Numbered from the stretch's first letter, positions 32,887 through 54,876 are shown. The stretch is 64,000 nucleotides of DNA from an uncultured Actinomycetes bacterium (GCA_963784675.1 CAWASE010000001.1:28449-92448); one strand, 5' to 3'. Translations and numbers: made by a program. The notes: generated by a model not told the origin, from the letters alone.

Positions 32887-34672
32887 GTGACCAGCACGCC
32901 ACCCGGCTCCCCCTCGCCCTCCGCCGGACCGGGCGAGCCCGTCCGTCCCGGGTCCGCCACCGGCGAGGCGGCGGCGCGGGGTGACGGTGACGGTGCCGCG
33001 GCAGACCCTGCGCGCCCGGCCCGACCGTTCCTGGTGCTCGGGATCGTGCTGACGTCGGTCTTCGTCCAGCTGCTCGACATCTCCATCGTCAACGTCGCCA
33101 TCCCGTCGATTCAGCGCGACCTCGGCGCGGGCACGGCAGCGATCCAGCTCGTCATCGCCGGCTATCAGCTCGCCTTCGCGTGCACGTTGATCAGCGCGGC
33201 CCGGCTCGGCGACATCCGCGGCCGTCGCACGCTGTTCGTCAGCGGCATGGCGGTCTTCACCGTCGCCTCGCTGCTGTGCGGGCTGGCGCCGGACCCGACG
33301 ACGCTGGTGCTGGCGCGGGCGCTGCAGGGCCTCGGATCGGGGCTGATGTTCCCGCAGGTGCTGTCGGTCATCCAGGTCACCTTCCTGCCCGAGGAGCGCG
33401 GCCGGGCCTTCGGCATCTTCGGCGCCACGATCGGGTTGGCCACCATCTGCGGTCCGCTGTTCGGCGGTCTGCTGCTCAAGGCCGACGTGTTCGGCACCGA
33501 CTGGCGCGCCATCTTCCTGGTGAACGTGCCGATGGGCATCGCAGCCATCGTGCTGGCGCTGCGCGAGATGCCCGACAGCGTCGCCCCCGGCGCTCCGCGG
33601 CTGGACCTGCCCGGGGTCGGCCTGATCGCCGTCGGCCTGTTCCTGCTGGTCTTCCCGCTGACCGAGGGCCGCCAGCGCGGGCTGGCCCTGGTGGATCTAC
33701 CTCATGCTGGCGGCCAGCGCCCCCGTGCTCGCCGCGTTCGTCGCGGCTGCAGCGCCGCAAGACGCGCCGAGAACGACGACCCGCTCGTGCTGCTCAGCCT
33801 GTTCGGCGACCCCGTCTTCCGTTCCGGAGCGATCGCTGTCGGCCGTGTTCTTCCTCGGGATCGCGCCGTTCTTCTTCGCCTTCTCGCTGTACCTGCAGGT
33901 GGGGCTGGGCTTCAGCCCGCTGCACTCCGGGCTCACCACGCTCCCGTTCGCCTTCGGCTCGGCCTTCGCCTCCGCCCGCTCGGAGAAGGTGGCAGCCCGG
34001 GTAGGGAGCAGCGTGCTCACGCTCGGCGCCGGGCTGGTCTGCGTCGGCATGCTCGGCCTGATCGCCACTCTGCATGCTGAAGGCCCCGCTCTGACCTCCT
34101 GGCACCTGGCCCCGGTCCTGCTGGTGTGCGGCCTCGGGCTGGGCCTGTTCATCGCGCCTCTCAGCAACATCGTCCTGGCGGGGGTCAGCGGGCGCGAGAC
34201 CGGCAGCGCCTCCGGCCTGCTCTCCACCGTGCAGCAGGTCGGCGGTGCGCTCGGCGTCGCCGTCATCGGCCTGTCCTGTTCGGGCTGCTCGGCGCGACGG
34301 CGCCGCGTCGGCGGGCAGGCCGGCGCCGGCCTGCGCGCCGCGCTCGGTGTCCGCCGGCCTGCCGGCGCAGGCGGTCGAGCCGGCGGTGGCCGGTTTCACC
34401 GACTGCTTCCAGCGACCGCGCGCAGCAGCGACCCCTCGACGAGCCGCCTGCCGGAGGTGCTGGAGCGCCCGACCCGGCCCCGGCGCGCAGGCTTTCGCGG
34501 CCGCTGCGTCGCGGGCCACCGCCACCGACTACCAGTGGGCGATCACGCACGCGCTGACCCTGCTGTTCGAGGTGCTGGTCTTCGCCGGGCGCCGGCCTGC
34601 TCAGCCGCGCGCGTCACCCGGAGCACCGCCGCACGGCCGAGCCCGGTGCCCGTCGCCGCAGGCGAGCCGTAG
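32887..34672 (+). pseudogene. MFS (DHA2/EmrB-type, 14-TM) transporter with multiple frameshifts
   Basis: Intact to ...FPLTEGRQRG (33681). The recognisable sequence then hops frames: WPWWIYLMLAASAPVLAAFVA / LQRRKTR / ENDDPLVLLSLFGDPVFRSGAIA / SAVFFLGIAPFFFAFSLYLQVGLGF...GVAVIG / VLFGLLGA / ...SAGLPAQAVEPAVAGFTDCFQ.... The 3' end is uncertain (34672 or 34693). Confidence 0.7.
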
Positions 34673-39868: not shown

Positions 39869-40534
39869 TCAGGGACCCGCCGCTGCCAGGGCCGCCCGGG
39901 CCGCCGCGGGCGGGGTCCCGTTCGCGCAGTCCGCGCCCTGCTCGCGCCCCTGGTCACCGCCGGCGTACGCCGTCAGGAACTGCGCCAGCCGCGGGTCCCG
40001 GGCGTCCTGGACGACGAGCTGCGCACCCCACGCCGTCGCGACCACCGGACCGCGCTGGTCCTCGTACGGCGAGACGAGCGCGTACTCCGGCCGGTCGGAC
40101 GCCAGGGCGGTCAGCGCGTCGACGAGGTCGCCGTCCGAGCCGGGCAGGTAGGTGAACCAGACGGCTCCGTGCTCCAGCGAGTGCAGCGCGAACTCTTCCG
40201 GCAGCGGCTCGGTGTAGACGCCGCACCGCAGCCAGCCGAGCACGCCCCCGGCCTGCGGCGGCCAGTGCGAGCCCTGCAGCGGTGGCCGAGCGTCGTAGCT
40301 GAGGTCACGGGCGACGTGCTCGGGCGCCTGGTACTCCTGCGTGCGGACACCCTCGATGCGCGCGCCGGCTGCCTGGTCCGGCGACGGTCGGGTGCGGACG
40401 CCCGGAGCGGCGGTGCCCCCCGGCGAGCCGGCCGACGGGCCGGCGGCGCCGCTGTCGTCGACCCCCGCCGCGCAGCCGGCCAGCAGCACGGCGCACAGTC
40501 CCGCAGCGCCGGCGACCAGCCGGCGGTCAGTCAC
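39869..40534 (-). CDS. DUF3105-like lipoprotein
   Basis: GTG 40534 gives [21 protein letters not shown] (lipobox LAGC). [12 protein letters not shown]...ATAWGAQL are typical DUF3105 motifs. The start overlaps the glgC stop by 8 nt. Confidence 0.65.
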
Positions 40535-41765
40535 GGACGTGCAGCCCCTTGCCGACCACGACGCGACCCCCGTCCGTGACGGTGAAGCCGCGCGCGCGGT
40601 CCGCCGCGTGGTCGACACCGACGGAGGCTCCCGGCCAGACGACGACGTTCTTGTCCAGGATGGCGTCCTTGACGACGGCGCCGCGCCCGACGTCGACGTT
40701 GTGCAGCAGCACGCTGCCGTTGACCTCGCTGCCGGAGTGCACCCGCACCCCGGGCGACACGATGGAGCGACGGACGCGCCCGCCCGAGATGATGACGCCC
40801 TGCGACACCAGCGAGTCGACCGCCTGCCCGACCCGGCCCTGCTCCTCGAAGACGAACTTCGCCGGGGGCAGCGCCGGCGAGGTGGTCAGGATCGGCCACT
40901 GCCGGTTGTAGAGGTTGAACACCGGGTGGATCGAGACCAGGTCCATGTGCGCGTCGTAGTAGCTGTCCAGGGTCCCGACGTCGCGCCAGTAGCCGTGATC
41001 GCGCTCGGTGGCGCCCGGGACGTCGTTGTCGGAGAAGTCGTAGACCTCGGCCGACTGCTTGCCGACCATCATCGGGATGATGTCGCCGCCCATGTCGTGG
41101 ACCGAGCCCTCGTCGCCGGCGTCCAGCTTCACGGCCTCGAGCAGCGCCTCGGTGGAGAAGACGTAGTTGCCCATCGAGGCGTAGACCATGGACGGGTCGT
41201 CGGGGAGCCCGGGGGGATCCGCCGGCTTCTCCAGGAACGCCTCGATGCTCCGCCCGTCCGGCCCGGTCTGGATGACCCCGAAACCGTGCGCCTCCTCGCG
41301 CGGGATCCGGATGCCGGCGACGGTGACGCCGGCGCCGGAGGCGATGTGCTGCTCGACCATCTGCCGCGGGTCCATCCGGTAGACGTGGTCGGCGCCGAAC
41401 ACGACCACGTGGTCCGGCTGCTCGTCGTAGACGAGGTTCAGGCTCTGATGGATCGCGTCCGCCGAGCCGCGGAACCACTGCGGACCGAGCCGCTGCTGGG
41501 CGGGCACCGGCGTCACGTAGTTGCCCAGCAGGGTCGACATCCGCCACGTCGTGGTGATGTGCCGGTCCAGCGAGTGCGACTTGTACTGCGTCAGCACGAC
41601 GATCCGCAGGTAGCCGGCATTCACCAGATTCGACAGCACGAAGTCGACGAGCCGGTAGATGCCGCCGAAGGGGACGGCCGGTTTGGCCCGGTCCGCCGTC
41701 AACGGTGCCAGCCGCTTGCCCTCGCCGCCGGCGAGAACGATGCCCAGTACCCGGGGGGAGCGCAT
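40527..41765 (-). CDS. glgC: Glucose-1-phosphate adenylyltransferase
   Basis: [46 protein letters not shown]... and a left-handed beta-helix C-terminus. ATG 41765 chosen (ORF track start 41783). Confidence 0.9.
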
Positions 41766-41795: not shown

Positions 41796-42947
41796 ATGCG
41801 CATCGGTGTCCTCACCCGTGAATGGCCGCCCGAGGTCTACGGCGGTGCCGGCGTCCACGTCGAGTACCTCGTGGCGGCGCTGCGCCGCGCGGGAGCGGTT
41901 CCGGAGGTGCACTCCTTCGGGGGTACCGCGGACGGCGCCGTCGCCCACGCCCCCGACCCGCGACTGGCCTCGGCCAACGCCGCGCTGCAGGTCCTGAGCA
42001 CCGACCTGTCGATCGCCGCGGCCGTCGGAGGCTGCGAGGTCGTGCACTCCCACACCTGGTACGCCGACCTGGCCGGGCACCTGGCGGCCCTGCTGCACGG
42101 CATCCCGCACGTCGTGACCACGCACTCGCTCGAGCCGCACCGTCCGTGGAAGGCCGAGCAGCTCGGCGGGGGGTACGCCCTCTCGTCGTGGGCCGAGCGC
42201 ACCGCCGTGCTGGCCGCCGACGCCGTCATCGCCGTGAGCCGCGGGATGGCCCGCGACGTGCTCGCGTCCTATCCCGAGCTGGACCCCGCGCGCGTCCACG
42301 TCGTCTACAACGGCATCGACGCCGAGCAGTACGCACCGACGCCGGCCACCGACGTGCTGGAGCGGCACGGCGTCGACCCTGCCGTGCCCTACGCGCTGTT
42401 CGTGGGACGCGTGACGCGGCAGAAGGGACTGGCCCACCTGCTCCGGGCCGCCCGCGACCTCCCCGGACAGCTGGTCCTGTGCGCCGGCGCCCCCGACACG
42501 CCGGAGATCGCCGCCGAGACCGAAGCCCTGATCGCCGAGCTGCGCAGCACCCGCTCCGGCGTGGTGCTGATCAGCGAGATGCTGCCCAAGACCGACGTGA
42601 TCCAGCTGCTCTCGCACGCGACGGTCTTCGCGTGCCCCTCGGTGTACGAGCCGCTGGGCATCGTGAACCTGGAGGCGATGGCGTGCGGCACGGCCGTGGT
42701 GGCCTCGGACGTCGGCGGCATCCCCGAGGTGGTGGTCGACGGCCGGACCGGGGTGCTCGTCCACTACGACGAGGCCGACCCGGCCGGCTTCGAGGCCGGC
42801 CTCGCCACCGCCCTGACGGAGGTCCTGCAGGATCCCGACCGCGCCGCCGGGCTGGGGCGTGCCGGTCGGGAGCGGGCGGTGGCGGAGTTCGGCTGGGACG
42901 CGATCGCCCGGCAGACCCTCGAGCTCTACCGCGCCGTCAGCCAGTAG
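41796..42947 (+). CDS. glgA: Glycogen synthase / alpha-glucan glycosyltransferase (GT4, actinobacterial GlgA type)
   Basis: MRIGVLTREWPPEVYGGAGVHVEYL...GRVTRQKG...EPLGIVNLEAMACGTAVVAS. Divergent from glgC with only a 30-bp gap. Confidence 0.85.
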   Translation: MRIGVLTREWPPEVYGGAGVHVEYLVAALRRAGAVPEVHSFGGTADGAVAHAPDPRLASANAALQVLSTDLSIAAAVGGCEVVHSHTWYADLAGHLAALLHGIPHVVTTHSLEPHRPWKAEQLGGGYALSSWAERTAVLAADAVIAVSRGMARDVLASYPELDPARVHVVYNGIDAEQYAPTPATDVLERHGVDPAVPYALFVGRVTRQKGLAHLLRAARDLPGQLVLCAGAPDTPEIAAETEALIAELRSTRSGVVLISEMLPKTDVIQLLSHATVFACPSVYEPLGIVNLEAMACGTAVVASDVGGIPEVVVDGRTGVLVHYDEADPAGFEAGLATALTEVLQDPDRAAGLGRAGRERAVAEFGWDAIARQTLELYRAVSQ

Positions 42948-42987
42948 CCGGTCGCCGTCCGTCCGGGCCTCCGACGCAGGCGACCGG
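42948..42987 (+). terminator. Possible long imperfect hairpin after glgA
   Basis: CCGGTCGCC ... GGCGACCGG (9-bp outer stem, with inner CGTC/GACG pairing) directly after the glgA stop. No U-tract. Confidence 0.25.
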
Positions 42988-43027
42988 AAAGCGCACTCCG
43001 CGCTGCCGGCTGTGCCAGAGTCGGCAG

Positions 43028-43723
43028 GTGCGCTCCCGATCCGCGCGTCCCGCGCTCGTGCCGGCAGGCCTGCCCGGCAGGCTTCTCGTCAAGCTGCTCG
43101 CGTGCCTGGTGGTGGCGCTCGGGCTCGTACCCGTGACGGCAGGGGCGTCCTGGGCCTGCTCCTGCCGGCCGGACGACCGCCCCGAGCAGGTCCGGTACGC
43201 CGAGACCGCCCGCGCCGCCGACGTCGCCTACGTCGGCGTCGTCACGAGCCGGACCACGCCACCACCGTCGGTGGACGGTCAGATCAGCAGCGCCCAGCAG
43301 AGCGTGACGTACACGATCCGCGCCGACCGGAGCCTGCGCGGCGCGGTGCTCGGCACCCGCAGCGTCACCGTCTCCAGCGCGGAGTCCGCCTGCGGGGTCA
43401 CCCTCCCGGAGCGGGCCCGCGTCCTGGTCACGGCCGAGCCCTTCGGGCTGTGCGGCGGCGTCACCACCGACCGGGTGCAGGAACGGGCAGCGCTCATCGC
43501 GAGCGCCTTGGCCCGCCCGCCGACCCGGCACGTCGTCCTCGCCTGCGAGGACCTCAGCAGCATCGCCCGGTCCGAGCTCGCACTGCAGGGGGTCGGCGCA
43601 CCGGCCGCCACGCAGCTAGCCTACGCGCGGCGGGCGATCGGCGCGGCCAACCGCAAGGTGCTCGGCCCGAGCCGGTCCCGGGTGCGGACAGGGACGAGCC
43701 TGACCGTCCCCCGACTGGTGTGA
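43028..43723 (+). CDS. Secreted protein with mature N-terminal Cys-Ser-Cys (TIMP/NTR-like OB pattern) and a LysM-like C-terminus
   Basis: Only the last ~230 codons of the 633-aa track ORF look real. Signal ...LLVKLLACLVVALGLVPVTAGASWA, then CSCRPDD...AADVAYVGVVTS...YTIRADRSLRG...CGVTLPERARVLVTA. The tail is HVVLACEDLSSIARSE...VRTGTSLTVP. The start (GTG 43028 or 43058) is uncertain. Confidence 0.5.
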   Translation: MRSRSARPALVPAGLPGRLLVKLLACLVVALGLVPVTAGASWACSCRPDDRPEQVRYAETARAADVAYVGVVTSRTTPPPSVDGQISSAQQSVTYTIRADRSLRGAVLGTRSVTVSSAESACGVTLPERARVLVTAEPFGLCGGVTTDRVQERAALIASALARPPTRHVVLACEDLSSIARSELALQGVGAPAATQLAYARRAIGAANRKVLGPSRSRVRTGTSLTVPRLV

Positions 43724-46224
43724 GACCGGTCCGGACCGGGCTGCTGGTCGCGGCGGCGCTGGTGGCCGCGCTGCTGGTGCCGACGCCGGCGCAGGCGGCT
43801 GCGCCGGACGTCGTGGTCAGCGCGCACCGCGGCGGTGCGGCGTATGCCCCGGAGAACACGATGGCGGCCTTCCGGAACGCCGTCGCGCTCGGGGTGGACC
43901 AGCTGGAGGCCGACGTGCAGCTGACGGCGGACGGTCGGCTGGTGGTGCTGCACGACGACACCCTGGACCGCACCACGGACTGCACCGGGACGGCGATCAG
44001 CGCGACCTTCGCCCAGATCCAGCGCTGCGACGCCGGCTTCTGGTGGAGCCCGGGCCCCTCGCTGACGGTGCGCACGACGCAGGCACCCCACCCCCTCCGC
44101 GGCACCGGCGTGCGGGTGCCGGCGGTGGAAGAGCTGCTCGCGCTCGGCCGCAGCAGCCCGCGGCAGAGCCTGTCCATCGAGGTGAAGAACATCCCCGGGG
44201 AGGCCAACTTCGACCCGACCGGCGTCCGCGTCGCCACGGCGCTCGTCGCCGCCGTCGACGCGAGCGGCATCGACAAGGAGCGGGTGCTCGTGCAGTCGTT
44301 CTTCCCGACCAGCCTGGAGGCCGTCAAGCGGCTGGACCCGACGCTGCGGACCCAGTTCCTGACCTCCTCGGGCACCGGGCAGACGGCCGCGCAGAACCTG
44401 TCGTACGCGACCGCCCGGGGGATCGACGTCGTCGCGCCGGACGATGCCGCGCCGGACCTGAACCCCGCCCTGGTGCAGGCAGCGCGCGCCGCCGGGCGCG
44501 CAGTGTTCCTCTACACGCCCGACCGGCGGGCGGCGCTGCAGCGCGGGCTCGGCCTGGGCGTCGACGGCCTGATCACCGACCGGCCCGCCTGCCTGCTCGC
44601 GCTGCTCGGCCGCCCGGTGCCGCCCGGCCGCACGGGGGGCGTCGCGGCCTGCGAGTCCGAGCGGGTCGGGGCCGGCCCGGTCGACCGGCCTGCACCGGAG
44701 ACCTGCACGGCCCTGCGGCCGCCCCGCTGGGCGCCCACCGTCGCCGCGCCGGACCCCCGCGGCGACCTGCGCGTCGTCGGGCTGCAGTACAAGCAGGACG
44801 TCGACAACGTCACCGACTACGCGGCCTTCCGCACCGCGATGCGGTGCCTGGTCGAGGACCACGTCGCGGGCCTGCGCGACGGACGCCCCGTGCTCGCGGT
44901 CTTCAACGAGGATGTCGGGCTCATGACGGTGGCGACCGGCTCGCGAGGTGCCAGCGTGCGGGCGCAGGCGGCGTCACCGGCCCGGGCGCCGGCCGGCACC
45001 GCCGCACCGGTCGGCGCCGCCGCTGCGCTGGGACAGCTCAACGCCGCCTACGCGCCGCAGGCCGCGGCCTACCAGGCCCGGTTCGGACCGGTCGACCCGC
45101 GCAAGCAGGTGCTGCTGGCCGCCACCGACACCTTCGCCCGGGCCTTCAGCGAGACCTTCAGCGGGATCGCCCGCGACTACGGCATCTACGTCGTCGCCGG
45201 CAACAACCAGCCCCGCTTCCGCAGCTCGACCGACCCCGCCGAGATCGCGCTGTTCGCCGACCCTGACCTGCCCAGCCCGCAGCAGGCGTACGTCGCCGTC
45301 GACGGCCGGGTGCCCAACACCGCCTACGTCTGGGGCCCGACCGACGTCGACCCGACCGCGGTCGCCCCCGAGCGCAACCTGCTGCACCGCAACGAGAAGG
45401 TGCCGCTCACCCAGACCGAGCTCGACCTGCTCGCCCTGGACGCCGGACCCTCCACCGGTCCCGCCGCGGTCGCCAACCTGCGTGGGCCGGTCGTCGCCGG
45501 GCACCGGCTGGGCATCGCGACGTCGCTGCCGGCGTTCGTCTACGGCCACGGCTTCGGCGGGCGTCCCGCGGCGGACCCGTGCGCCGACACCTCGCTCACC
45601 TACATGGCCTGCCTGGACGCGCTCGGCACCGACGTCGTCGTGCAGGACGAAGCCAACCCGGGCCCGTGGGCGGCCTACAACCCGGGCGGCTGGCAGCCGC
45701 TGGAGTGGATGAGCTCGACCTGGCGCGCGGTCGCCGACCCCAGCGTGCACTTCCGCTACAACATCACCCCGCACCTGGTCGGCAACCTGCTGGACCTGCC
45801 CTTCGACGGTCAGTCCGCCATCACCGCGCGCGCGGCCGGGCAGCCCTCGCGGCACTACGTCGGCACCACCGAACGCCTCGATGCACGGGATCCCGCCGAG
45901 TACCAGGTGTACGCCGGCGGCAAGCCGCACTTCCTCGCGCTGGCACCGTGGGTGGTCCCCGACGCCCCTCGCACCGACCTGGAAGCGGTGGCCCGGCGGC
46001 TGGCCGGGGGCAGCGGCGACCCGATCGAGGACGGATACCTGCAGACCGCCGTCGCCGCCGACCTGCTGCCCGTCCCCGCTGCGGTCCGGACTCCCACGGC
46101 TCCGTCCGGCGCCGCACCCCCTGCTTCCCCCGGCCGGCTGCCAGCCACCGGCGGTCAGGCACCCTGGGCCGCGCTGCTGCTGCTCGTCCTGCTGGCCCGA
46201 CGAAGGAACCGACGATGGACCTGA
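43720..46224 (+). CDS. Cell-wall-anchored glycerophosphodiester phosphodiesterase fused to a ~530-aa domain of uncertain (carbon-nitrogen-hydrolase-like?) type; LPATG sorting signal
   Basis: GTG 43720 overlaps the upstream stop (GTGA). Sec signal VRPVRTGLLVAAALVAALLVPTPAQA. GDPD motifs VSAHRGGAAYAPENTMAAF, EADVQLTADGRLVVLHDDTLDRTT. C-terminus is LPATG + GQAPWAALLLLVLLA + RRRNRRWT. Confidence 0.7.
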   Translation: MRPVRTGLLVAAALVAALLVPTPAQAAAPDVVVSAHRGGAAYAPENTMAAFRNAVALGVDQLEADVQLTADGRLVVLHDDTLDRTTDCTGTAISATFAQIQRCDAGFWWSPGPSLTVRTTQAPHPLRGTGVRVPAVEELLALGRSSPRQSLSIEVKNIPGEANFDPTGVRVATALVAAVDASGIDKERVLVQSFFPTSLEAVKRLDPTLRTQFLTSSGTGQTAAQNLSYATARGIDVVAPDDAAPDLNPALVQAARAAGRAVFLYTPDRRAALQRGLGLGVDGLITDRPACLLALLGRPVPPGRTGGVAACESERVGAGPVDRPAPETCTALRPPRWAPTVAAPDPRGDLRVVGLQYKQDVDNVTDYAAFRTAMRCLVEDHVAGLRDGRPVLAVFNEDVGLMTVATGSRGASVRAQAASPARAPAGTAAPVGAAAALGQLNAAYAPQAAAYQARFGPVDPRKQVLLAATDTFARAFSETFSGIARDYGIYVVAGNNQPRFRSSTDPAEIALFADPDLPSPQQAYVAVDGRVPNTAYVWGPTDVDPTAVAPERNLLHRNEKVPLTQTELDLLALDAGPSTGPAAVANLRGPVVAGHRLGIATSLPAFVYGHGFGGRPAADPCADTSLTYMACLDALGTDVVVQDEANPGPWAAYNPGGWQPLEWMSSTWRAVADPSVHFRYNITPHLVGNLLDLPFDGQSAITARAAGQPSRHYVGTTERLDARDPAEYQVYAGGKPHFLALAPWVVPDAPRTDLEAVARRLAGGSGDPIEDGYLQTAVAADLLPVPAAVRTPTAPSGAAPPASPGRLPATGGQAPWAALLLLVLLARRRNRRWT

Positions 46225-47949
46225 ACCTCACCCGCCGTCGCCTGCTCGGCGGAGCCGCCGCGCTCGGTGCGGCCACGCTGCTGCCTGCCGAACCCGTCTG
46301 GGCGGCTCCCGCCCGCGGGCGGCTGAGCACGCAGGTCGTGGTCGTGGGCGCCGGCATGGCCGGGCTGACCGCCGCCCGCGACCTGCTCGACCAGGGCGTC
46401 GACGTGCTGCTGCTGGAGGCCCGCGACCGGGTCGGCGGCCGCCTGCTCAACCACGACATCGGTGGTGGTCACGTCGTCGAGGTCGGCGGCCAGTGGCTCG
46501 GTCCGGCGGACGACGTGCCGGCGGCCGACCCCACGCAGGGCGACGTGCGGGGGCAGTCGGCGGCCGAGGCGGTGCTGCAGCGCGTCGGTCTGCGCCGCTT
46601 CCCCACCTACAACGACGGCGCCTACGTCGACTACCGCAGCGACCTGCCGGTCCAGCGCTCGACCTACACCGGGCGCATCCCCACCTCCGACCCGGCAGGT
46701 GTCGCCGAGGCGGCGAAGGTGCTCGCCCAGCTGGACGCGATGTGCAAGACGGTGCCGCTGGACGCCCCGTGGACGGCGCCGCGCGCGTTCGCCTGGGACG
46801 GCATGACCGTCCAGTCGTTCCTGGACTTCGGCGACACCGCGCTGGACGAGAACCGGCTGCCGGGCACCTTCGGCAACGGGGTGCTCTCGCCGGGCGGGCG
46901 GCACCTGGTGTCGCTGGCGATCGAGTCGGTCTTCTCGGTCGAGCCGCGCGACCTGTCGCTGCTGCACGCGCTGTTCTACCTGCACGCCGCCGGCAGCATC
47001 GAGTCGCTCATCAACACCGCCGGGGGCGCGCAGCAGGACCGCGTCGTCGGCGGCACGCAGCTGCTCGCGATCCGCACGGCGGCGGCGCTGGGCGACCGGG
47101 TCCGGCTCTCCTCGCCGGTGCGCCGGGTGGACCAGACCGGCTCGCGCGTGGTCGTCTCCGGTGACGGCTTCGAGGTCACTGCCGACCGGCTCGTCATGGC
47201 GCTCCCGCCGACGCTGTGCGGGCGCATCGACTGGGTGCCCGCGATGCCGGCACTGCGCGACCAGCTGACCCAGCGGATGCCGATGGGCACGGTGCTGAAG
47301 GTGCAGTGCGTCTACGACGAGCCGTTCTGGCGCGCCGACGGGCTCGCCGGGCAGACCACCAGCGACACCGGCCCGGTGAAGCTGACCTTCGACAACAGCC
47401 CGCCGGACGGCTCGGTGGGAGTGCTGATGGGCTTCATCGAGGCCTCCGACGGACGCGCCGCGCTGCGCCTGTCGGCGACCGACCGACGCCAGGGCGTCGT
47501 CGACTCCTTCGCCCGCTACTTCGGCGGGAAGGCCCGTGCCGTCGAGCAGTACGTCGAGATGTCGCTGGTCGGCCGAGCCGTACAGCCGCGGGTGCTACGC
47601 GGGTGTGTTCGGGCCGGGGGCGTGGAGCGACTACGGGCCCGAGCTGCGCGCGCCGGTCGGGCGCGTCCACTGGGCCGGCACCGAGACCGCCACGGTGTGG
47701 AACGGCTACATCGACGGCGCCATCCGCTCGGGACAGCGGGCGGCCGCTGAGGTCGTGGCTGCGCGGGGCAAGGGGTCGGCGCCGGTCGCGGCGCCCGCGG
47801 TGACCGGTCCGGTCGTGTCCGGACCCGCCGATCCCCCAGGCGGTGCGCTGGCCGCCACCGGCGCCAGCACCGCGGTCGAGGTCGCCGGCGCTGCCGCGCT
47901 GACCGCTGCCGCCGGCCTGGCCCACCGGCGCCGCAGCGCCCGCGACTGA
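46215..47949 (+). pseudogene. Tat-exported flavin-containing amine oxidase with an LAATG sorting signal; +1 frameshift at 47565
   Basis: MDLNLTRRRLLGGAAALGAATLL (twin-arginine) and VVVVGAGMAGLTAARDLLDQGVDVLLLEARDRVGGR (FAD fold). Reads to ...EQYVEMS, then the conserved WSAEPYSRGCYAGVFGPGAW...VHWAGTETATVWNGYIDGAIRSG continues in the next frame to 47949. Length is 1735 nt (3n+1). The tail is LAATG + hydrophobic stretch + HRRRSARD. Confidence 0.75.
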
Positions 47950-47976
47950 CCCGGCCCCCGACCGGGCGGGCGCCGG

Positions 47977-49139
47977 CTACCGGCTGAGCACCTGCGCCAC
48001 GGCCTCGCCCAGGGTCCGGTGGCCGGCCGGCGACAGGTGCAACCCGTCGCCGTGGTCGTAGCCGGGCCGCAGCCGCTCGGCGTCCGACGGGTCGCGCAGC
48101 ACGACGTCGGCGTCGACGACGTCCCCGCTGGCGCGGATCCAGGCGTTCACCTGCTCGCGGGCCGCTGCTGCGCCGGGCGTGCGGCGCGAGGCCGGCGGGA
48201 TCGTCAGCAGCACCACCCGCAGGCCCTTCGCCCGGGCCTGTCGCACCAGGGCGGACAGCTCGGCGACGAGCCGGTCGGCCGACAGCTCGCGCGCGAGGTC
48301 GTTGGTGCCGGCCAGCACGACGAGAGTGCCGATGCCCTCGCGGGCGAGCACGTCACGCCCGAAGCGCTGACGCAGCGTCGGACCGTAACCGCCGTCGACG
48401 ACGACGCGGTTGCCGGCGATCGCCGCATTCAGCACGGGCGTGCCGGGCAGTCGTGCCGCGAGAGCGTCGGTCCACCGCGGGAAGGTGTCGGCCGGCAACG
48501 GCGCGTCGGTGAGGGAGTCGCCGACGGCCAGCACCGACGCCCGGTCGCGGGTCAGCACCTGCACCTCCTCGACGACCAGGCCCTCGCGGTCAGCGAGCAC
48601 GAACGGGCCGGCGTCGGCGCGGCGGGTCAGGTCACCGCTGCCAGGCACGCTGCACCAGCCCGTCGCCGCGCCTTCGCGGTGCACCGACAGCTCGGCGCGG
48701 CCGGCGACGGCGAAGGTGACGACGACGTCGTCGCCGGCACGCACGGCCAGAGCCACCTCGTCGGTGCGCACCGTGGTCCCGGCCGCGATCGTCACGGCTC
48801 GTGCGCCGTCGACCGTGACGTCGCGGACGGTCTCCGGGCGGACGGCAGCGCCCTGCGCGCGCAGGCCCACCGTCACGGCGGACAGTCGGACGTCGCTCGG
48901 GCTGACGGCGTCGGACAGCGTGAGCCGCAGGGTGGGGCCGCCGGCGCCGACCCGGAGCGACCTGACGGCACGTCTGGTCGCGGGTCGGTTCGTGCCGCAC
49001 CGCGACCATCGCCTGGACGGCCGCCGAACGCCAGACGGCGCCGCTGGGCGGCCGGGCCCCTCCACGCCCCGTCTGCGGTGCCCACCAGGGTGGCCGCGCC
49101 GAGCAGCCCGATGCCGCCGAGCGCCAGCAGCCGTCTCAC
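47977..49139 (-). pseudogene. Secreted SGNH/GDSL-family hydrolase with two +1 frameshifts in the N-terminal region
   Basis: The body is intact (LAVGDSLTD...GTNDL...DGLHLSPAGH). The signal peptide VRRLLALGGIGLLGAATLVGTADGA (GTG 49139) and the segment WRSAAVQAMVAVRHEPTRDQTCRQVA are each in different frames from the body (RVGAGGPTLRLTLSD...). Length is 1163 nt (3n+2). Confidence 0.65.
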
Positions 49140-53556: not shown

Positions 53557-53589
53557 ACATCCCTGACCGTCGATGAGCTGGGCACCTGG

Positions 53590-54876
53590 GTGACCCAGCT
53601 GGCCGAGCTGGCACGCGACGTCACAGACGAAGAGCGGGTCGACCGGCTCCGCGTCCTGGAGCAGGTCTCCTGCGCCGTCGCTGCCGCGCAGGCTCGCGAG
53701 GCCGTCCGGCTGGACGCCTCGCGTCGAGCCGCCCGGGCGGCCGCAGGCGTGCCGGCTGCCCGGCAGGGCGAAGGGGTCGCCGCCGAGATCGGGCTGGCCC
53801 GGCGGGTGTCCCCGCACCGGGGCGCCCGGCTGCTAGGCATGGCCAAGATCCTGACGGCCGAGATGCCGCACACGCTGGCGCTGATGACCGCCGGGGCGCT
53901 CACCGAGTGGCGCGCCACCCTGCTGGTACGGGAGACCGCGTGTCTCGAGCTCGCCGACCGGCAGACCGTCGACGCCCAGCTGTGCGGCGGCCGACGACCC
54001 GATGGCGGCCGGCCTCGGCGACGCCGGGACTGGTCGCCGAGATCCGCGGGCTGGCCGCCGGCTCTGGACGCCCGTGCAGTGGCCGCCCGCGCCGCGAAGG
54101 CCGCCGCCGACCGGCACGTCAGCATCCGCCCGGCTCCGGACACGATGGCGTGGGTGTCCGCGCTGCTGCCGGTCTCCGACGGCGTCGCTGTCTACGCCGC
54201 GCTCCGCCAGGCAGCCGATACCGCCCGCAGCGACGGCGACAGGCGCAGCCGCGGGCAGGTCATGGCCGACACCCTGGTCGCTCGGGCCACCGGCCGAGAC
54301 CCGCTCGAACGTTCGGTCGACCTCGACGTCCGGGTGGTGCTGTCCGACGCCACGCTGCTCGACGGCGACGACGAACCGGCCCAGGTGTCCGGGTACGGAC
54401 CGGTCCCCGGCCCGTGGGTGCGGCGGCTGATCGCCGACGCCGCGGCAGACCCCGACGTCAACGTCTGGGTACGGCAGCTCTACGCCGCGCCGCACGGCGG
54501 CCTGACCGCCACCGCGTCCCGCTCCCGCCTGGCCCCGGCCGGCCTGGCCGAGCTGATCGCCCTCCGCGACCGGAGGTGCCGCACCCCCTGGTGCGACGCG
54601 CCTATCCGGCAGACCGACCACATCACCCCGTGGGCCGACGACGGCGCCACCGAGGCCGCCAACCTGCAGGGGCTCTGCGAACGGTGCAACCTCGCCCGCC
54701 AGGCCCCCGGCTGGCATGCCGCCGCTCCCCCGGGCCTCGGCCGTCATACCGTCGTCATCACCAGCCCCACCAGGCACACCTACGTCCCCACCGCGCCCTC
54801 GCCGCCTGGCCACCGGACCGGCCGACCCGACTTCTGTCTCGAGGCCGGCCTGCGCCGCCTGCTCTCCGCGGCCTGA
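53590..54876 (+). CDS. DUF222 / HNH endonuclease family protein (possibly frameshifted; ancestral start probably ATG 53549)
   Basis: MPHTLALMTAGALTEWRATLLVRETACL..., RPAPDTMAWVSALLPVSDGVAVYAAL, RSRGQVMADTLV, and the HNH motif RCRTPWCDAPIRQTDHITPWADDGATEAANLQGLCERCN. An internal 27-codon stretch is out of the family frame (see findings). Confidence 0.75.
   Translation: MTQLAELARDVTDEERVDRLRVLEQVSCAVAAAQAREAVRLDASRRAARAAAGVPAARQGEGVAAEIGLARRVSPHRGARLLGMAKILTAEMPHTLALMTAGALTEWRATLLVRETACLELADRQTVDAQLCGGRRPDGGRPRRRRDWSPRSAGWPPALDARAVAARAAKAAADRHVSIRPAPDTMAWVSALLPVSDGVAVYAALRQAADTARSDGDRRSRGQVMADTLVARATGRDPLERSVDLDVRVVLSDATLLDGDDEPAQVSGYGPVPGPWVRRLIADAAADPDVNVWVRQLYAAPHGGLTATASRSRLAPAGLAELIALRDRRCRTPWCDAPIRQTDHITPWADDGATEAANLQGLCERCNLARQAPGWHAAAPPGLGRHTVVITSPTRHTYVPTAPSPPGHRTGRPDFCLEAGLRRLLSAA

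Follow-up and report, generated by a model that had tools for sequence, protein, structure and literature searches.

A stretch of 64,000 nt from an uncultured Actinomycetes bacterium (GCA_963784675.1 CAWASE010000001.1:28449-92448; hereafter the window, with positions counted from its first base) carries two overlapping genes, here called p2 and p3, for two proteins with predicted cell-wall anchors. The first gene joins a glycerophosphodiester phosphodiesterase (GDPD) domain to a second domain, domX, which is modelled with a nitrilase-superfamily fold and has serine where that superfamily has its catalytic cysteine; the second encodes a flavin amine oxidase of the MAO family. A small gene, p1, lies immediately upstream. 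The window has a G+C content of ~75%, and its genes were mapped with a position-specific GC likelihood caller suited to 75% GC DNA; the gene context of p2 was taken from the loci of relatives, since looking up the exact sequences of p2 and of the protein P0001 yielded no genomic context. The closest relatives of the window are metagenome-assembled genomes (labelled Mycobacteriales, Frankiales, and uncultured Actinomycetota), many of them with 'MFD' isolate names. The features of the gene pair are as follows.

43720..46224, plus strand: p2, an 834-aa exported two-domain enzyme with a Sec signal, GDPD, a Ser-variant CN-hydrolase-like domain, and an LPATG signal
43720..43797, plus strand: Sec-type signal peptide of p2, VRPVRTGLLVAAALVAALLVPTPAQA, read from the sequence; homologues carry equivalent signal peptides or lipoboxes
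43825..44589, plus strand: GDPD domain of p2, aa 36-290, with HRGG...ENT...E-x-D...HD motifs; PF03009
44683..46071, plus strand: domX, 463 aa, p2 residues 322-784, nitrilase-superfamily (CN-hydrolase) fold
44908-44910, 45397-45399, 45418-45420, and 45523-45525, plus strand: domX tetrad, Glu76, Lys239, Glu246, and Ser281, respectively (domX numbering)
46138..46224, plus strand: sorting signal of p2, with LPATG (46138-46152), hydrophobic GQAPWAALLLLVLLA, RRRNRRWT, and the stop codon (46222-46224)
46215..47563, plus strand: p3 part 1, flavin amine oxidase (MAO family) with a predicted twin-arginine translocation (Tat) signal, from ATG to the frameshift; the frame runs on to a stop at 47750
47560..47563, plus strand: single-base insertion, ATG TCG C TGG, placed by DNA alignment with seven relatives
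47564..47949, plus strand: p3 part 2, in the frame of the open reading frame (ORF) 47536-47949, oxidase C-terminus with SRGCY, GTETA...WNGYIDGA, and the LAATG signal

The start of p2 (GTG, 43720-43722) overlaps the TGA of p1 (43721-43723) in the sequence GTGA, and the ATG of p3 at 46215 lies 10 nt inside the p2 gene with GAAGGA 7 nt upstream. Both junctions are as the initial annotation of this DNA had described them, and the three export signals and two sortase-type sorting signals that it listed are all present in the sequence. The genes at 43720-46224 and 46215-47949 are probably co-transcribed and translationally coupled.

The assignment of the N-terminal domain of p2 to the GDPD family, also made in the initial annotation, is borne out by the Pfam hidden Markov model (HMM) PF03009, which is matched over profile positions 1-243 of 244 (4e-48, 165.1 bits against a cut-off of 23.6); p2 lies below the equivalog cut-offs of all NCBIfam GDPD models. 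The segments AHRGG, ENT, LEADV, and VLHDDT, which we take to be the GDPD catalytic and metal-binding motifs, align residue for residue with 2pz0 (H-R, E-x-D, and H-D motifs). Solved structures nearest to this domain are 2pz0 (1.7e-28), GlpQ (5t91), and a lysoplasmalogen phospholipase D (7ymq). With GDPDs of the GlpQ/UgpQ type (2pz0, 5t91, and the Thermocrispum enzyme 7ymq) p2 shares the PF03009 catalytic motifs and, with GlpQ and the lysoplasmalogen-specific phospholipase D, export; it differs in being fused to a 463-aa CN-hydrolase-like domain and a sortase signal. A protein 100% identical to p2 is present in the public collection (P0001), full-length homologues share 54-78% identity, and a related MFD genome holds a truncated copy (P0076).

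No sequence profile identifies the remainder of p2. Searches of domX against Pfam and NCBIfam gave no match, with CN_hydrolase (PF00795) absent for domX at E<=0.01 and for p2 at E<=1, and comparison with PDB chain sequences gave chance-level matches only (for domX and p1 together, Bcl-w and TetR at E ~0.3-0.6). The initial annotation had listed the CN-hydrolase family among the profiles to be searched and had given it no role in the proposed pathway; the profile does not match, and it is the predicted structure that points to the superfamily. An AlphaFold2 model built from 39 homologues has a predicted local distance difference test score (pLDDT) of 93 and a predicted template-modelling (TM) score of 0.94, and the top 50 PDB matches returned for it by Foldseek all belong to the nitrilase superfamily, with probability 1.0 and target TM-scores of up to 0.67. 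These include a Nesterenkonia amidase (2e-10), beta-ureidopropionase, formamidase, Nit2, aliphatic amidase, and the glutaminase domain of NAD synthetase. On this model domX has the alpha-beta-beta-alpha sandwich of the nitrilase superfamily. The domX family comprises ~680 representatives among 1.84 billion clusters, all of them unannotated or labelled 'GDPD family' or 'hypothetical', and its distant BNR-fused relatives reach the Pfam CN_hydrolase profile at 2e-7 (31 bits).

As far as we know, a Glu-Lys-Glu-Cys tetrad is the defining feature of the nitrilase superfamily, and every characterized member known to us uses a nucleophilic Cys. In the domX alignment Glu76 (VFNEDVG), Lys239 (RNEKVPL), and Glu246 are invariant, and they are retained in ~97-98% of 213-234 aligned family members. 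Ser281 (GIATSLPAF) takes the nucleophile column, where the catalytic Cys would be expected, in 208 of 226 members; Cys stands at exactly this column in four distant members only (P0292, P0317, P0323, and P0364, with GIAICFDAF and similar). The Glu, Lys, and Glu of domX align, through P0316, to the FPE and RK-x-H-L motifs of PDB members of the superfamily. P0316 belongs to a subfamily (also P0329 and P0306; ~820-1170 aa) in which a Ser-variant CN-hydrolase-like domain with the motif T-S-K-D-A-W is joined to BNR/sialidase-like repeats. The Ser of this subfamily aligns (phmmer) to the catalytic Cys of 6mg6 and, at the same column, to Ser in 5h8k and 2e2k, both of which are Cys-to-Ser mutants. Outside the active site, domX has four invariant Cys residues, which could form disulfides. 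We conclude that domX is a previously unmodelled Ser-for-Cys offshoot of the nitrilase superfamily.

Compared with CN-hydrolase amidases (4izu/3hkx, 5h8k, AmiF, and the vanin 4cyf), domX shares the fold, the Glu-Lys-Glu positions, and the strand-turn-helix 'nucleophile elbow'. It differs in having GIATSLPAF in place of the usual G-x-x-I-C-x-D, in lacking a PF00795 match, and in being a secreted protein or lipoprotein fused to GDPD or BNR repeats. Vanins (pantetheinase) are extracellular membrane-tethered amidases that release a primary amine. An adaptation of the Ser-for-Cys exchange to export or to H2O2 was considered and set aside: three of the four Cys-retaining relatives have complete N-termini, and all three carry lipoprotein signals, so export alone is an insufficient explanation.

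It is possible to read domX instead as a non-catalytic pseudo-enzyme whose role is to bind a ligand or to support the oxidase as partner or scaffold. The replacement of the catalytic Cys by Ser in 208 of 226 members would suit such a role, as would the deposition of Cys-to-Ser and Cys-to-Ala variants as trapping forms and the ~200 residues by which domX exceeds the canonical core. The tetrad, however, is near-invariant across sequences of ~50-80% identity and in the BNR-fused subfamily, as is typical of a working active site, and Lys-activated Ser nucleophiles are chemically competent in the amidase-signature family; we therefore regard a pseudo-enzyme as unlikely. No Ser-variant clade of the nitrilase superfamily was found described in the literature, and a natural, widely conserved Ser-for-Cys clade, if it has kept its catalytic activity, would widen the chemistry known for a textbook family of enzymes.

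The initial annotation had treated the amine oxidase gene as a single ORF at 46215-47949. This does not hold for the assembled sequence, where the frame beginning at 46215 reaches a stop at 47750 and LAATG lies in another frame. The family assignment itself stands: p3 part 1 matches PF01593 at 4e-45 (155 bits) over profile positions 1-367, and p3 part 2, in the second frame, matches the last 68 positions of the same profile (375-442; 5.6e-15, 56 bits). DNA alignment with seven relatives places one extra base in the window only, and without that base the product reads VEMSWSAEPYSRGCY, matching the intact homologues (558-585 aa). The source assembly annotates a truncated oxidase product of 511 aa (P0128). 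Programmed frameshifting was rejected as an explanation, there being no slippery site at ATGTCGCTGG and a single frame in the relatives.

Could the oxidase gene instead be a true pseudogene in a decaying module, with p2 (and p1) alone functional in the source organism? The 1-nt insertion is present in the sole available assembly, and the deposited product is truncated. Against decay, the 129 codons downstream of the insertion still match the oxidase profile and keep an intact sorting signal, and the gene is intact in all relatives examined. Moreover, a second, unrelated gene in the window appears to be frameshifted: an MFS-type transporter gene at 32887-34672 (plus strand) is divided between two overlapping ORFs in different frames (32887-34080 and 33704-34672), and the frame changes at ~33.7-33.8 kb. 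Given this second frameshift, the conserved segment beyond the first, and the fact that the nearest relatives are 'MFD' metagenome-assembled genomes, at least one of them with the truncated p2 copy, the oxidase frameshift is probably an assembly indel, and a genuine pseudogene is the less probable explanation, to which we would give perhaps one chance in a handful.

When the extra base is removed, p3 can be aligned along its whole catalytic part with PDB 8p84, 'Monoamine oxidase' (9e-112), with about half of the aligned residues identical; it also matches human MAO A/B (~1e-77), putrescine oxidase (~1e-72), and cyclohexylamine oxidase. The motifs GxGxxG, SRGCY, and GTETA..WNGYIDGA are kept, of which the Cys of SRGCY presumably occupies the position of the flavin-linked Cys of human MAO, and the motifs are also taken to correspond to the tyrosines of the MAO aromatic cage. 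A literature search on PDB 8P84 and 9H5P found no description of the closest oxidase structure. The N-terminus of p3 begins MDLNLTRRRLLGG and has a twin-arginine motif; the predicted Tat signal (46215-46304) consists of TRRRLLGG, a hydrophobic region, and VWA, and scores 16.8 bits against the Pfam TAT_signal cut-off of 22.7. A simple motif check found an equivalent RR motif in many oxidase orthologues. Relative to the MAO-family oxidases 8p84, MAO A/B, Rhodococcus putrescine oxidase, and cyclohexylamine oxidase, p3 is distinguished by its predicted Tat signal, its LAATG anchor, and its pairing with domX. NicA2 is a soluble enzyme of the flavin amine oxidase fold that is exported to the periplasm by the Tat pathway and uses cytochrome c as acceptor; p3 matches it (5ttj/7kho) distantly (~1e-22), far more weakly than 8p84 or MAO, and no cytochrome gene was seen among the annotated genes adjoining the pair in the window.

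Both proteins end in a signal of the kind recognized by sortases. The LAATG of p3 (47848-47862) is followed by a hydrophobic stretch and HRRRSARD, and this signal and the LPATG of p2 are the only two such patterns in a six-frame translation of the window. No NCBIfam LPXTG-anchor model is among the matches at E<=1. In actinobacterial homologues of p2 the C-terminus consists of LP/A-x-T-G followed by a hydrophobic span and a basic tail, with the variants LPATG, LAATG, LPRTG, LPSTG, LASTG, LPDTG, LPTTG, and LPVTG; this ending is absent from Gram-negative homologues, which begin with lipoprotein signals instead. The oxidases follow a similar division. Those of the closest relatives (L004, L005, and L057) carry LPxTG signals, many others from actinobacteria have just a Tat signal, and in those of Nevskiales a Tat motif is joined by a lipobox, as in ...SRRRLLAGAAALG...LAGCG. 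In a few lineages (Micromonosporaceae, a Streptomyces, Paraoerskovia, and Homoserinibacter; L049-L056, L079, and L081) the oxidases are apparently cytoplasmic.

These signals predict an extracytoplasmic location and a covalent cell-wall linkage for both p2 and p3, and the occurrence of two different anchoring devices on the same protein pair argues that its retention at the cell surface matters. The signals share with substrates of actinobacterial class E (LAXTG) sortases the pentapeptide, hydrophobic span, and positive tail, with LP and LA interchanging among orthologues; the difference lies in the cargo, which here consists of catabolic enzymes.

A flavin oxidase predicted to be tethered outside the cell might also serve mainly to generate H2O2 or aldehyde for antagonism or signalling, in the manner of secreted L-amino-acid or lysine oxidases, and MAO and putrescine oxidase do release H2O2. 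No immunity, toxin, or secretion genes are found among the annotated neighbours in the window, L028, or L079, however, and the apparently cytoplasmic orthologues listed above are poorly suited to such a role. Some Tat-exported enzymes of the MAO family, such as NicA2, are in addition dehydrogenases. This use of the pair is, in our judgement, the most improbable of the readings considered here.

The partnership of p2 and p3 was followed across relatives. Scanning one genome per species gave 302 domX loci, of which the best 80 were fetched, and tblastn with the four parts of the finding was run over 82 related loci, 69 of which had enough flank to be informative. An oxidase homologue immediately adjoins domX or a GDPD-domX fusion in 44 of the 69, from Actinomycetota, gammaproteobacterial Nevskiales (Fontimonas, Solimonas, Stagnimonas, and Sinimarinibacterium), and one Binatia genome. 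Divided by the presence of GDPD, an adjoining oxidase is found in 30 of 38 loci without it and in 14 of 31 in which it is fused. Since the oxidase adjoins domX in most loci that lack GDPD, the conserved core is domX and the oxidase, with GDPD as a frequent third partner. Where GDPD is N-terminally fused it is 55-76% identical to that of the window in Mycobacteriales, Nevskiales, and Binatia and only 28-38% identical in Solirubrobacterales; in P0259 it is fused at the C-terminus instead (domX-GDPD).

At the junction of p2 with the oxidase gene, the 10-nt overlap of the window recurs in L083, and there is a 4-nt overlap in L001 and a 32-nt gap in L002. Automatic stop-to-start distances proved unreliable because of upstream read-through and only clear cases were used; by a cruder scan for start codons, L034, L037, and L068 may have 4-nt overlaps, and Nevskiales loci may have gaps of 9-30 nt. 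The last two residues are Trp-Ser or Trp-Thr in thirteen anchored p2 homologues (the corresponding stretch of the window is 46213-46224). Such ends are expected if an A-TGG-nnC-TGA overlap with the oxidase ATG is conserved, so that the overlap would constrain the last residues of p2.

These counts bear on a direct route, in which GDPD frees an amino-alcohol head group (e.g., ethanolamine) from glycerophosphodiesters or lysolipids and the oxidase acts on it directly, with domX an incidental stalk or binding module. GDPD and oxidase do lie in one overlapping gene pair here, and a secreted lysoplasmalogen phospholipase D of the GDPD family provides a precedent, 7ymq being among the closer GDPD structures. 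The oxidase nevertheless tracks domX and not GDPD: it is adjacent in the 30 of 38 loci without GDPD and not adjacent in 17 of the 31 with a GDPD fusion, and a passive stalk would not be expected to hold a strongly conserved tetrad of catalytic type. A direct passage from GDPD to oxidase thus seems improbable. The initial annotation had proposed a cell-wall-tethered two-step pathway of this kind. The predicted export and tethering of both enzymes and the adjacency of their genes in relatives agree with that proposal; its core, the feeding of the oxidase by GDPD, is not supported.

The interpretation that we favour, and to which we would give slightly better than even chances, is a surface-tethered, co-transcribed pair with domX and the oxidase as its core and GDPD as an add-on, acting in a stepwise amine-releasing and amine-oxidizing route. 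GDPD, where present, would first cut the substrate from a glycerophosphodiester. A secreted actinobacterial enzyme of the GDPD family releases ethanolamine or choline from lysoplasmalogen and sets a precedent for this step (PMC5095149). The domX domain would then hydrolyze a C-N bond (N-acyl or N-carbamoyl) and free a primary amine, which the oxidase would turn into an aldehyde, NH3, and H2O2 outside the cell. Together the three activities may dismantle an N-acylated amino-alcohol phosphodiester and so scavenge N, P, and C. Candidate substrates for the three steps are glycerophospho-N-acylethanolamines and ceramide-phosphoglycerol or -phosphoethanolamine lipids; for the two-component form of domX and oxidase they are N-carbamoyl- or N-acetyl-polyamines.

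Several observations weigh against this stepwise route. It is drawn solely from domain chemistry and gene association. In PDB titles, Cys-to-Ser and Cys-to-Ala enzymes of the nitrilase superfamily appear as inactive or substrate-trapping forms, and the natural Ser form of domX might not be a hydrolase. The oxidase gene is broken as assembled, and no intact, 100%-identical copy is present in the public collection. The window holds no sortase (no TLxTC-containing ORF in a coding frame). An adjacent oxidase is lacking in 25 of the 69 informative loci, including the close relative L018 and most GDPD fusions of Solirubrobacterales, so the pairing of domX with the oxidase is not obligatory. Finally, no cluster of neighbours is shared beyond a single lineage, apart from the TetR gene of Nevskiales described below, and no conserved aldehyde dehydrogenase, transporter, or sortase is evident.

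The neighbours that do recur are lineage-specific; examples are acyl-CoA dehydrogenase, glutathione peroxidase, TetR, tgt, queA, and secD for Nevskiales and moaA with modC for Solirubrobacterales. In 13 Nevskiales loci (L009, L011, L012, L016, L017, L023, L028, L030, L035, L036, L039, L044, and L061) a divergent TetR-family regulator is encoded on the other strand, ~150-300 nt upstream of domX. It may act as a local regulator, and its ligand could reveal the substrate. A further arrangement occurs in Homoserinibacter sp. GY 40078 (L079, 7317-16527), where a ROK regulator and an MFS_2 transporter are divergent on the minus strand and the plus-strand run comprises a domX that lacks a signal peptide, then Amidohydro_2, a 623-aa protein that weakly matches GH125, GDPD as a gene of its own, and the oxidase. 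This looks like a cytoplasmic version in which the three activities are encoded by separate genes beside a glycoside-type transporter.

The families concerned are themselves known. A search of the literature found no sortase-anchored GDPD or amine oxidase, no GDPD/CN-hydrolase fusion, and no Tat-exported MAO-type enzyme, nor do we know of a published GDPD fusion or flavin amine oxidase with a sortase anchor. As far as could be found, the Ser-variant domX, its pairing with the oxidase, and the tethering of both are undescribed. To our knowledge the physiological substrates of bacterial MAO homologues are mostly unknown, and the pairing of domX with an MAO-type enzyme offers a concrete handle on the function of these homologues. 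The pair also points to an undescribed extracellular recycling route for amine-containing lipids or metabolites in soil. A bolder proposal, which we put forward tentatively and think less likely than the stepwise route itself, is that domX founds an extracytoplasmic Ser-nucleophile clade of nitrilases and forms, with a tethered oxidase and often GDPD, a new pathway for lipids or N-substituted amines in soil Actinomycetota and Nevskiales. Cultured carriers of the pair, among them Fontimonas thermophila, Solimonas flava, S. fluminis, S. variicoloris, Stagnimonas aquatica, Hamadaea tsunoensis, and Catellatospora, make the hypothesis directly testable.

The gene upstream of the pair presents a different picture.

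43058..43723, plus strand: p1, small secreted protein; start GTG 43058, or GTG 43028 as the source annotates

Its composition is coding-like in the gene map, and p1 is a real gene. A Sec-type signal ends in ASWA|CSC and leaves a mature N-terminus of Cys-Ser-Cys, the first Cys being encoded at 43157-43159. Searches against Pfam and NCBIfam (E<=1) and PDB sequences gave no match for p1, with PDB chains returning chance-level hits only. Five homologues of 45-68% identity were found among 5.8 billion proteins, a family of six members in total, in which ASWACSC and four Cys residues (C44, C46, C122, and C142), with TIMP-like spacing, are invariant.

The AlphaFold2 model of p1 has a mean pLDDT of only 69, with ~80-90 in its C-terminal part, where a beta-alpha-alpha-beta arrangement is predicted (E166-169, H176-186, H194-207, and E224-227) without a match to the LysM profile (PF01476). 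Foldseek with this model found the NTR domain of PCOLCE (best E 4e-5), the meteorin NTR domain, agrin NtA, and TIMP-1/-2. As a description of the fold, and given the moderate confidence of the model, an NTR/TIMP-like N-domain followed by a LysM-like C-terminal domain is reasonable. The initial annotation had called p1 a CxC/LysM-like protein and had listed TIMP/NTR among the families to be searched; these resemblances survive in the model, and HMM searches gave no match to LysM or TIMP. With those families p1 shares the mature Cys-x-Cys N-terminus, the Cys spacing, and a C-terminal domain predicted as beta-alpha-alpha-beta; it differs in lacking HMM support, in belonging to a six-member family, and in that nothing ties it to a metalloprotease. 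The fold and the Cys-Ser-Cys terminus would suit a wall-bound, TIMP-like inhibitor.

The initial annotation had further grouped p1 with p2 and p3 as a translationally coupled three-gene module. This grouping did not survive comparison: p1 has no match in any of the 82 related loci compared by tblastn, including L001 and L002, where small unrelated ORFs fill its place. It precedes p2 in L083-L086, of which L083, fetched later, has p1 ahead of the pair. It occurs in a very narrow clade only and is probably a lineage-specific neighbour that plays no functional part in the enzyme pair.

Around the three genes the gene map places the following features.

40527-41765, minus strand: glgC-like gene, upstream flank, divergent to the glgA-like gene
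41796-42947, plus strand: glgA-like gene, upstream flank of the finding
47977-49065, minus strand: GDSL lipase, convergent to the oxidase gene, followed by inositol monophosphatase and acyl-CoA dehydrogenases
53563-54876, plus strand: HNH-endonuclease-domain gene

A scan of 42700-48200 for promoter and terminator consensus sequences found nothing, such a scan being uninformative for high-GC actinobacteria. The HNH-endonuclease-domain gene is absent from the matching positions of L001 and L002. So is the GDSL-family lipase gene, which is present in L083. The gene order around the finding is otherwise common to the window and to both of these relatives, L001 and L002.

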